Shown: positions 13,548-53,851 of the stretch, in pieces
Layout: each line of letters begins with the position of its first letter
How positions within the stretch are numbered: the stretch's first letter is position 1
From: an uncultured Thermoplasmata archaeon
Lineage (GTDB): Archaea > Thermoplasmatota > Thermoplasmata > UBA10834
DNA length: 64,000 nucleotides
Reading direction: 5' to 3'
Assembly: GCA_963719945.1 (NCBI GenBank)
Contig: CAVRDX010000004.1
Span: 192,001 to 256,000, forward strand
Made by a program: the position numbers and the translations under genes
The notes under the pieces: generated by a model
Databases searched by the model: none
What the model was told of the DNA's origin: nothing
What the model saw: only the letters and a program-made list of their open reading frames with translations

Positions 13548-14501
13548 TTAGGGCAGATCCTTGACCATCAATACTTCCACCGATTCGACCTTGAATCCGG
13601 CTGACTTGTACATGCCAAGAGCCTTCTCGTTCTCAGCATCGACCATTAGCAGAATCCGTTCGGCTCCTTGAGACTTCAGCCAATTCACACTATCGAGAAG
13701 GAGATTCCTACCCAACCCAAGCCTGCGATGTGATTTGACGACTCCCAGGATGGCCACCCATCCTTCCCTCACACCTTCGCCTTCGACCTTGGGAGGTCTA
13801 TCCTCACTCATTACGAACCCAACCGTTTTCCCATCGTCCACCGCGAATGTGACTGCAAACACATCGTTTGTAGCCTCGAAAAAATTCTTGAACCTGTCCA
13901 TTGTGACGGGCGCGTAGTTGAAATGATCTACAAACGATTCGTTTCGAACATCAACGATTCTCGACGACAGGTTTTCGATGTCATCCTCGATGAGTATGCG
14001 CTCGACCCGGATGTCTTTCAGGAACGCAGCTTCCTCTGATTCGCAATTCTCGTTTCGAACCATTTCGTAATACTTGCGAACTTCATGGAAACCCGCACTC
14101 TCCAACAATCTCTTCTTCCAGGTGTCAATCTGGTAGCACGGGATCTGTGTCGCAGATACGCCGCGACCTGCGAGATACTCGAGGGACTTCTCCAGAAGTA
14201 TTTCTTCGATTCCGTCACATCTATGGTTCCGCATGACCTCGATGTCGAAATAAGAATCTCTCAATCCATAGGCCAGTCTTGCTCGATCAACAAGTCCATT
14301 TGCATAACCGACAGCTTCTCCATCGATGATTGCCAGCCAGGCACCTTTCGGATCGTAATCGCTATCGAGAAAAGTCTCTGCCCTCATCTCATCCGGGTTG
14401 ACTGTTCTTTGTGAGGGTAGACCTGCTCTTGAATCGTTTGAAACCTTCGCCATCGATTCGACATCATTCTCAGTTGGATGTCGGTACTCTATTCCAGGCA
14501 T
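13548..14501 (-). CDS. tandem-domain GNAT acetyltransferase (MshD-like)
   Basis: LGVVKSHRRLGLGRNLL motif A, VDAENEKALGMYKSAGF; degenerate first GNAT domain. Confidence 0.85.
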   Translation of the reverse strand: MPGIEYRHPTENDVESMAKVSNDSRAGLPSQRTVNPDEMRAETFLDSDYDPKGAWLAIIDGEAVGYANGLVDRARLAYGLRDSYFDIEVMRNHRCDGIEEILLEKSLEYLAGRGVSATQIPCYQIDTWKKRLLESAGFHEVRKYYEMVRNENCESEEAAFLKDIRVERILIEDDIENLSSRIVDVRNESFVDHFNYAPVTMDRFKNFFEATNDVFAVTFAVDDGKTVGFVMSEDRPPKVEGEGVREGWVAILGVVKSHRRLGLGRNLLLDSVNWLKSQGAERILLMVDAENEKALGMYKSAGFKVESVEVLMVKDLP

Positions 14502-53103: not shown

Positions 53104-53363
53104 CGATGCACCCACAATCTGATCATCTGGCTATGTGTAGAGTCGATGTCAGTCTTGTCAGCATGTCAAGTCGTGACAATGGTGCAGTTAATAATGTTTG
53201 CCCAAGAACACGATTATTATATTCCTATTATTATAGGGCGATACATCAAATATATGCCGTTCGGTGGAGGAGTCGGCTCAAACCAGTTGATGGGTGAAAG
53301 TCATTAAATACTTGAACGAACTACACGGCCTGCTAACGCAGCCTAGGGTATCTACGCCGCCCA

Positions 53364-53507
53364 GGGCCCGTAGCTCAGCTAGGTAGGAATCTCATGCATT
53401 CTCGATGTTATGGTTTCCCTAGAAAGAGCATCTGCCTTTTAAGCAGGTGGCCCGGGGTTCGAATGACTAAGCCATACAGACTAGTCTCGGAAATCCCCGC
53501 GGGCCCG
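53364..53507 (+). tRNA. tRNA-Lys(UUU) with two non-canonical introns (about 53385-53424 at 20/21; about 53464-53493 at 59/60)
   Basis: Spliced GGGCCCGTAGCTCAGCTAGGT|AGAGCATCTGCCTTTTAAGCAGGTGGCCCGGGGTTCGAA|TCCCCGCGGGCCCG folds as a complete cloverleaf; relaxed BHB-like motifs at both junctions. Confidence 0.88.
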
Positions 53508-53593
53508 CCGGGCGTCGAATGCGGACCGATGGAGAAACGGAACGAATCCCACGGTTTCCATGTGGAATACCCTTCGCCAGTATGGTGATTTGG

Positions 53594-53851
53594 ATGGCCG
53601 GAGAATTTAACGTCTTGGAGCATGAGCTCGTACCCGAGCATCATCTTCTGTCGGAGAAGGAGGCCGAGAAGGTCCTTAAGCAGCTGAAGCTTACGAAGGA
53701 CCAGCTTCCGAAGACAAGGATAACTGACCCATGCATCCGCACGCTCGATGCGATTGCTGGGCCAGTCGAAGAGGGAATGGTAGTCAAGATCGTTAGGCGC
53801 AGCTCAACGAGCGGCGTGTCGATCTGTTATAGACTTGTAGTGCGGGGGTGA
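53594..53851 (+). CDS. rpoH: RNA polymerase subunit H (Rpo5)
   Basis: HELVPEH, QLPK...[14 protein letters not shown]; GGTGA RBS. Confidence 0.95.

Follow-up and report, generated by a model that had tools for sequence, protein, structure and literature searches.

A tRNA-Lys(UUU) gene with two non-canonical introns and a two-unit splicing endonuclease without specificity loops in Thermoplasmata

How can a gene interrupted in both its D-loop and its T-loop give a working lysine tRNA in a lineage of Thermoplasmata, and which kind of splicing endonuclease would remove the interruptions? This question is raised by positions 53364–53507 of the stretch of contig C4 analysed here (the window, 64,000 nt in its full length). 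When 53385–53424 and 53464–53493 are taken out, a flawless 74-nt tRNA-Lys(UUU) cloverleaf remains, which ARAGORN draws as tRNA-Lys(ttt). All five segments lie on the plus strand and can be read directly from the sequence. Exon 1 (53364–53384, 21 nt, GGGCCCG UA GCUC AGCUAGGU), confirmed by ARAGORN and by the scan described below, comprises the acceptor 5' strand, U8 and A9, the D-stem 5' strand, and the D-loop up to U20. Intron 1 (53385–53424, 40 nt) is located at position 20/21 and belongs to the relaxed HBh' type; the blind scan, the fold, and the pairing in orthologues agree on it. Exon 2 (53425–53463, 39 nt, A GAGC A UCUGC CUUUUAA GCAGG UGGCC CGGGG UUCGAA), also drawn by ARAGORN, contains A21, the D-stem 3' strand, the anticodon arm with UUU, the variable loop, the T-stem 5' strand, and the T-loop bases U54–A59. 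Intron 2 (53464–53493, 30 nt), located at position 59/60, is of a near-strict hBHBh' type and is indicated by stem covariation and by the scans. Exon 3 (53494–53507, 14 nt, U CCCCG CGGGCCC G), again with ARAGORN in agreement, consists of U60, the 3' strands of the T-stem and acceptor stem, and the discriminator G73. CCA is not encoded in the gene; CCG follows directly after exon 3.

The sequence-only reading of the window had proposed exactly this gene, with introns at 20/21 and 59/60, and the spliced cloverleaf and the independent scan indicate that its cut sites are exact. It was also right in assigning no intron to position 37/38, the anticodon loop being uninterrupted. The minimum-free-energy fold of the 144-mer (−56.9 kcal/mol, z = −3.2, with 0 of 200 shuffles equally good) recovers the acceptor, D, anticodon, and T stems together with the central helices of both introns. 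Folding also gives neighbouring registers with one bulge base paired, so there are several nearly equal conformers, the BHB form among them.

Each intron is built around a BHB-type core, with a central helix of 4 bp and, on either side, a 3-nt strand in which the cut follows the second base. Neither has the strict hBHBh' arrangement, in which helices flank the motif at both ends and nothing lies opposite either 3-nt strand. In intron 1, the central helix H1 is formed by the D-loop bases C16, U17, A17a, and G18 (CUAG, 53379–53382) and the CUAG at the 3' end of the intron (53419–53422). Its 5' site is a true 3-nt bulge, GU^A (53383–53385), followed by the intron stem h', GGAA (53386–53389)/UUCC (53415–53418), while A14 and G15 face the 3' site, AA^A (53423–53425), and form with it a 2x3 internal loop that the D-stem closes. 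In intron 2, the T-stem CGGGG/CCCCG provides the outer helix, UUCG (53458–53461) and CGGA (53488–53491) form the central helix H2, and both sites are bulges, AA^U (53462–53464) and AA^U (53492–53494). The stem h' of this intron is GACUA (53465–53469)/UAGUC (53482–53486), and its sole departure from the canonical hBHBh' form is an extra U (53487) opposite the 5' bulge. All the helices that had been named earlier for the two introns are present in the sequence, and thermodynamic folding recovers them. The description of both motifs as relaxed holds for intron 1, an HBh' motif with its 3' site in a 2x3 loop, and is overstated for intron 2, which has both 3-nt bulges, the 4-bp helix, and both flanking helices.

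Inspection of intron 1 by eye showed no C or D boxes of a box C/D guide. Most members of the same family keep the heptamer AUGCAUU (53394–53400) of this intron unchanged, whereas the surrounding bases and its apparent pairing partners vary; the heptamer is absent from more distant orthologues.

The introns were also sought without the use of the previously proposed coordinates. Both strands of the 1.78-Mb genome were scanned for helices of 4 bp with a 3-nt strand on each side, the motifs being sorted into strict and relaxed classes; every candidate intron was spliced out singly and in pairs, and the products were passed to ARAGORN. Among 673,307 candidate pairs, C4:245385–245424 with C4:245464–245493 (window positions 53385–53424 and 53464–53493) was spliced to tRNA-Lys(ttt), the exons meeting after bases 21 and 60 (20/21 and 59/60 in Sprinzl numbering). 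Outside real tRNA loci, the whole genome yielded no more than three paired-splice matches. As the independent scan gave the same intron pair and just these three other matches, the coordinates of the sequence-only reading are not a chance reading. The three matches themselves (C1:126244, called 'Pyl', C3:340836, and C4:787) could be spliced only with very long additional 'introns' and were set aside as chance matches. A strict BHB scan of the genome recovered Arg-CCG, Arg-UCU, and Thr-CGU and did not recover tRNA-Lys(UUU); the gene needed the relaxed classes, and thus its motifs are relaxed.

The expectation that standard tRNA scans may miss such a gene was borne out for ARAGORN, Rfam cmscan, and an Infernal whole-genome tRNA search, which leaves the gene unlisted even at E ≤ 10. 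Over the whole 64-kb window, ARAGORN and Rfam report tRNA-Gly(CCC) alone. Two mechanically called ORFs overlapping the locus (53394–53588 on the plus strand and 53408–53644 on the minus strand) are without support.

The tRNA set of the genome comprises 44 genes, of which 16 are interrupted; 13 canonical and 5 non-canonical introns correspond to 0.41 introns per gene. The tRNAscan-SE 2.0 census gives 0.078 introns per gene for Euryarchaeota and 0.14 for Methanomassiliicoccales (PMC8450103 Table S7). Strict BHB introns are found at 59/60 in Arg(CCG) (C1:495577–495602), at 59/60 in Arg(UCU), which has a canonical intron as well (C3:13658–13679 and 13702–13725), and at 20/21 in Thr(CGU) (C4:108157–108185). 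Three tRNA genes of the genome were missed outright by the finders, and two more were given a wrong anticodon owing to misplaced introns: ARAGORN calls Thr(CGU), with its D-loop intron, Gly(GCC) (C4:108101–108204) and Leu(UAA), with a canonical intron, Ser(UGA) (C1:832711–832818). In addition, Gln(CUG) (C3:110214–110308) is called by ARAGORN as a 95-nt intron-less gene, yet a 21-nt canonical intron is present. Genes for tRNA-Asp(GUC) and the initiator tRNA-Met were not found in the 87%-complete assembly by an nhmmer profile of its own tRNAs, single or paired intron removal, or anticodon-arm patterns; perhaps they belong to the 13% that is not assembled, or are disrupted more severely. Both CAU-anticodon genes that are present carry canonical introns.

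As for lysine, the assembly contains a single Lys(UUU) gene, with no second match to the spliced sequence, and the only other lysine tRNA is Lys(CUU), which cannot read AAA. The segment 53364–53507 is a real and probably indispensable lysine tRNA gene, the sole reader of AAA codons in the assembly.

The conservation of the gene was observed in relatives, as the sequence-only reading had recommended. With RpoH as bait, 49 loci from different species were collected, all of them from uncultured Thermoplasmata or Thermoplasmatota, several labelled Methanomassiliicoccales and one UBA10834. A complete tRNA-Lys(UUU) gene is located directly upstream of rpoH in 45 of the 49 loci. Both introns are present in 40 of these 45 orthologues, including those of Methanomassiliicoccaceae (L035–L040); four have the D-loop intron and a canonical 37/38 intron without the T-loop intron, and one is intron-free (74 nt). 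Of 401 genomes sampled across the class, 120, from 35 of 105 genera, match an exact pattern combining the D-loop intron with the UUU anticodon arm; the reversed control gave 0 matches. The distribution is uneven, and in some large families the pattern does not occur (0/48 and 0/43). Such introns are thus routine in the clade, a circumstance that had been expected to lower their novelty.

In the more distant Thermoplasmata L041, L042, L043, and L045, the D-loop intron is accompanied by a 50–60-nt canonical 37/38 intron (about positions 1269–1426 of each locus), and the tRNA-Lys(UUU) gene of L046 has no intron at all. As the distant loci with a D-loop intron keep it alone of the two, it looks older than the T-loop intron. 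Intron gain or loss has thus affected three positions of this one gene.

The exons are almost invariant in the 33 distinct two-intron sequences, all 21 columns of exon 1 being invariant, although RpoH identity across the orthologue species is only 60–98%. The introns (31–41 nt for intron 1 and 21–33 nt for intron 2) diverge freely except in the strands that pair with exons: the intron strands of H1 and H2 are either invariant or show G-U/A-U changes only. The intron 1 tail CCCUAGAA is conserved in the orthologues while the interior varies, and the 2x3 loop at the 3' site of this intron is invariant in nearly all of them. Over the 33 distinct sequences, 97.1% of cells pair in the specified structure, compared with 33–52% in slid controls, and the covariation score was reached by 0 of 500 shuffles. 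All five pairs of the intron-2 stem have changes on both sides, i.e., compensatory ones, and one pair of the anticodon stem is compensatory as well, with G-C in place of C-G in nine sequences. In this alignment, the BHB motif is maintained in evolution while the intron interiors drift.

A putative archaeal promoter, assigned by its position and conservation, is located on the plus strand at 53296–53310; it consists of a BRE-like GAAAG and the TATA box UUAAAUA (53304–53310). It lies about 55 nt upstream of the tRNA 5' end, and this position implies a 5' leader of about 25–30 nt. A WTTAWATA box is found at the same distance in 17 diverse orthologous loci, with diverged flanks. The region between the TATA box and the tRNA (53311–53363) is unusually conserved in the family (ACUACACGSCCUGCUAACGCAGCCUAGGGUAUCC...). 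It includes a small hairpin, CUGC-UAAC-GCAG, and the sequence CAGCCUAGGGUA, resembling the exon 1/intron 1 junction CAGCUAGGUA; pairing would be possible between its CUAGGG and the CCCUAG of the intron-1 tail. Distant lineages likewise have a GCUAAY motif close to where transcription should start.

On the other side, the gene is followed by the conserved neighbour rpoH (RNA polymerase subunit H; 53594–53851, plus strand), which served as the bait, and then by unsplit rpoB from 53856. No AT-rich box was seen in the 86-nt spacer 53508–53593, and the order of tRNA and rpoH is kept in 45 species. The tRNA-Lys(UUU) may be co-transcribed with the RNA polymerase operon.

Among sequencing runs, only two RNA libraries were found, with 5–6% of the sampled words, and the contigs obtained from four runs come from relatives. 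No splice joints were found in these low-share contigs, and some of them still contain the introns. One contig of a relative starts exactly at 53425 and runs into rpoH (53425–53694); contig ends carry no meaning.

The lack of spliced RNA in the contigs of relatives, the failure of standard finders to detect the gene, and the 13% of the genome that is missing would all fit a decaying pseudogene or inserts that are never removed, with the Lys(UUU) function supplied by an unassembled copy or by another AAA-reading tRNA. Against this stand the exons, which stay invariant at the RpoH divergence given above, and the introns, which diverge yet keep their pairing, as well as the synteny with rpoH. A separate, intact Lys(UUU) gene, which would have marked the present one as a pseudogene according to the sequence-only reading, does not occur in the 87%-complete assembly, where Lys(CUU) is the only companion. 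Moreover, inserts of 30–40 nt retained in the tRNA would break the contact between the D-loop and the T-loop. We consider the pseudogene explanation extremely improbable; a real gene with removable introns is the reading followed below.

The enzyme repertoire of the genome was observed directly by a profile search. EndA is encoded by a single 351-aa frame (C4:182534–183589) located 62 kb upstream of the tRNA-Lys(UUU) gene on the same contig. Two matches to PF01974 and two to PF02778 are all inside this frame, in the order N-C-N-C (residues 1–67, 77–162, 184–248, and 260–343), and no other match to either family, as would be expected if alpha and beta were encoded separately or if the protomer were a three-unit epsilon, was found in the genome. 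Of 25 relatives, 23 have this same fused gene as their sole full match, among them every one of the 10 with a completeness of 90% or more, and the closest database homologues of the protein are nearly all 351 aa in length. Residues Y290, H298, and K329 align with the catalytic triad of the M. jannaschii enzyme, in unit 2 only. The first unit is full-length (PF01974, 70.8 bits) and contains DFRVF instead of HFRAY; it lacks the catalytic Tyr and His. By its sequence, EndA is a two-unit enzyme of the alpha'2 type with the catalytic Tyr-His-Lys in the C-terminal unit only. The RtcB ligase is encoded at C1:636868–638175 (605 bits).

The specificity loops were compared at the sequence level, using pairwise HMMER alignments to 1a79, 1r0v, and 3p1z_B (the M. 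jannaschii, A. fulgidus, and A. pernix enzymes). The L1/L2 region of the catalytic unit is FGKMIGAALQLSL, compared with YGNVEGNFLSLSL in M. jannaschii (a one-residue length difference) and YGSEKGDLVTLSL in A. fulgidus. These alignments contain no CSL/L1 or ASL/L2 insert in EndA: the 11-residue CSL of A. pernix, with K44, has no counterpart, and neither has the ARMAN loop at the site where it was grafted into the A. fulgidus enzyme (E174–G176; PMC3488258). An L3 insert is absent too: M. jannaschii has two residues more between the catalytic Tyr and His. Among solved structures, the engineered M. kandleri beta-alpha fusion 5x89 (E 3.8e-36, residues 3–344) matches EndA best, followed by the M. 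jannaschii, A. pernix alpha, and A. fulgidus enzymes; the T. acidophilum enzyme (2ohc) matches at the C-terminus only.

It had been supposed from the introns that both are removed by a broad-specificity endonuclease of the lineage, an (alpha-beta)2 or epsilon2 enzyme bearing a specificity loop, and a classification of endA had been suggested. Genomes rich in non-canonical or multiple introns usually do have such enzymes (PMC4090602, PMC5829648), and in a genome that is 87% complete, a second endonuclease gene could be unassembled. However, the profiles match one fused frame, which recurs in the relatives, and the alignments place no insertion in L1/L2 and a shortened L3 region. The classification obtained is the alpha'2 type with the specificity loops absent; at the sequence level, the supposition of an (alpha-beta)2 or epsilon2 enzyme is largely refuted, and we regard it as very improbable.

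The gene is thus very probably functional, the only assembled Lys(UUU) gene, and its precursor would be cut by the alpha'2-type EndA and joined by RtcB. We infer that splicing occurs and that the 351-aa EndA performs it. Transcription from the conserved TATA promoter would give a precursor of about 170 nt, the ends of which would be trimmed. The conserved bases of the tRNA loops would supply the exon strand of each 4-bp central helix (C16–G18 with CUAG and U54–G57 with CGGA). Homodimeric EndA would dock on each motif of a helix plus two strands and make four cuts, after the second base of each 3-nt strand; RtcB would then join the three exons, and CCA would be added post-transcriptionally. Archaeal EndA recognises the motif and not the mature domain (PMC4090602), and an alpha'2 enzyme would be expected to accept the strict introns of the Arg and Thr genes and the near-strict intron 2 at any position.

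Intron 1 is the difficult substrate. Its 3' site is no true bulge, so either the loop-less EndA tolerates this geometry or the pre-tRNA offers a bulge-like form, in which, speculatively, the customary tertiary pairing of A14 and G15 with U8 and C48 would take them out of the loop. In published assays, relaxed motifs are hardly cut by the alpha'2 enzyme of A. fulgidus (PMC3488258, PMC5829648), so there is no guarantee that the 351-aa EndA removes intron 1 efficiently. A 3' site of this type is cut poorly in vitro by the A. fulgidus enzyme and by the loop-less M. kandleri enzyme (PMC5829648). The Thermoplasmata lineage must cope with this site, since it is kept across the class as a 2x3 loop in an essential gene; possible routes are slow but sufficient cleavage, a tRNA fold that removes A14/G15 from the loop, or some feature of the enzyme.

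An alternative that also takes the introns as real is that intron 1 needs a protein cofactor, an ordered pathway (e.g., with intron 2 or the ends processed first), or a lineage-specific change of EndA outside the known loops. In its favour, the 2x3 loop is nearly invariant, such sites are handled poorly in vitro by the loop-less A. fulgidus and M. kandleri enzymes (PMC5829648), and the full-length first unit of EndA, together with its best solved match being 5x89 over the full length and not the Thermoplasma enzyme 2ohc, can be read in the same sense. On the other hand, nothing positive points to a cofactor; the proper bulge, the central helix, and the closing D-stem may suffice on physiological time scales, and M. 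kandleri evidently manages, splicing a D-loop intron in vivo late in maturation (PMC3695527). We think a special requirement of this kind rather unlikely, though worth consideration, and retain direct cleavage of the precursor by EndA as the preferred reading.

The closest parallel is the pre-tRNA-Glu of M. kandleri, in which two isoacceptors have a D-loop HBh' intron before A21 and a canonical intron, processed with a loop-less EndA (PMC5829648; RNA-seq PMC3695527). As in that case, the D-loop intron of tRNA-Lys(UUU) is at position 20/21 and of a relaxed type with one proper bulge, the other site not being a bulge; the lineage is likewise euryarchaeal with an EndA lacking L1, L2, and L3, and it is the M. 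kandleri beta-alpha fusion that is the best solved match. There are three differences. The M. kandleri enzyme is a heterotetramer of separate alpha and beta gene products, whereas a single natural polypeptide with two units takes its place here; in M. kandleri the other intron is canonical, whereas here it is in the T-loop and position 37/38 is uninterrupted; and a single species is concerned there, whereas here the arrangement is inherited across much of a class.

The multi-intron tRNA genes of Thermoproteales and Thaumarchaeota resemble the present gene in having several BHB-type introns, at sites including 20/21 and 59/60 and with relaxed motifs (PMC4090602, PMC8450103 Table S7), but these archaea have (alpha-beta)2 enzymes with the Crenarchaea-specific loop, and the intron density of Thermoproteales is 0.84 per gene versus 0.41 here. 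In the pre-tRNA-Cys of ARMAN-2 (Ca. Micrarchaeum), which has a relaxed T-loop intron and an epsilon2 EndA (PMC3239211, PMC3488258), T-loop bases also form one strand of the central helix of the intron. However, the three-unit enzyme of ARMAN-2 requires its ASL loop (K161) for the substrate, no such loop is found in the EndA described here, and the T-loop intron of tRNA-Lys(UUU) keeps both bulges.

Both sites, 20/21 and 59/60, have been listed before as non-canonical intron positions (PMC4090602), and tRNAscan-SE 2.0 reports 25 non-canonical introns in 144 euryarchaeal genomes; for three Methanomassiliicoccales genomes, it lists 13 canonical and 6 non-canonical introns, with one gene having 2 introns (PMC8450103 Table S7). 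The phenomenon has thus already been catalogued in the same class, but the table gives counts only, without positions, motif types, or a link to the enzyme. No discussion of non-canonical introns in Methanomassiliicoccales or Thermoplasmata was found in the literature searched beyond this table.

The introns of tRNA-Lys(UUU) are therefore non-canonical BHB introns of a kind already known, and the feature of the clade is a mismatch between the type of its introns and the type of its endonuclease, which is the one usually described as accepting standard introns only. According to the model of co-evolution between tRNA introns and EndA architecture, euryarchaea bearing alpha'2 enzymes should have single canonical introns (PMC4090602, PMC5829648). 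In contrast, 16 of the 44 tRNA genes are interrupted here, five introns are non-canonical, and an essential gene has long kept two of them, one relaxed. A practical consequence is that, because the common finders miss the gene, the genomes of a large archaeal class look as if they had no AAA-reading tRNA.

We suggest, as a possibility that we consider rather less likely than not, that a branch of Thermoplasmata comprising at least 35 genera depends on a loop-less two-unit EndA for the removal of a relaxed D-loop intron from an essential tRNA. As the clade includes the cultivable Methanomassiliicoccus, it is a natural test of what the specificity loops are needed for. If the suggestion is true, the accepted rule by which the processing of non-canonical or relaxed introns is reserved for loop-bearing (alpha-beta)2 or epsilon2 enzymes would not be general, and specificity would have been broadened in another way: by a feature of the full-length two-unit enzyme, by use of the tertiary fold of the tRNA, or by a helper factor.
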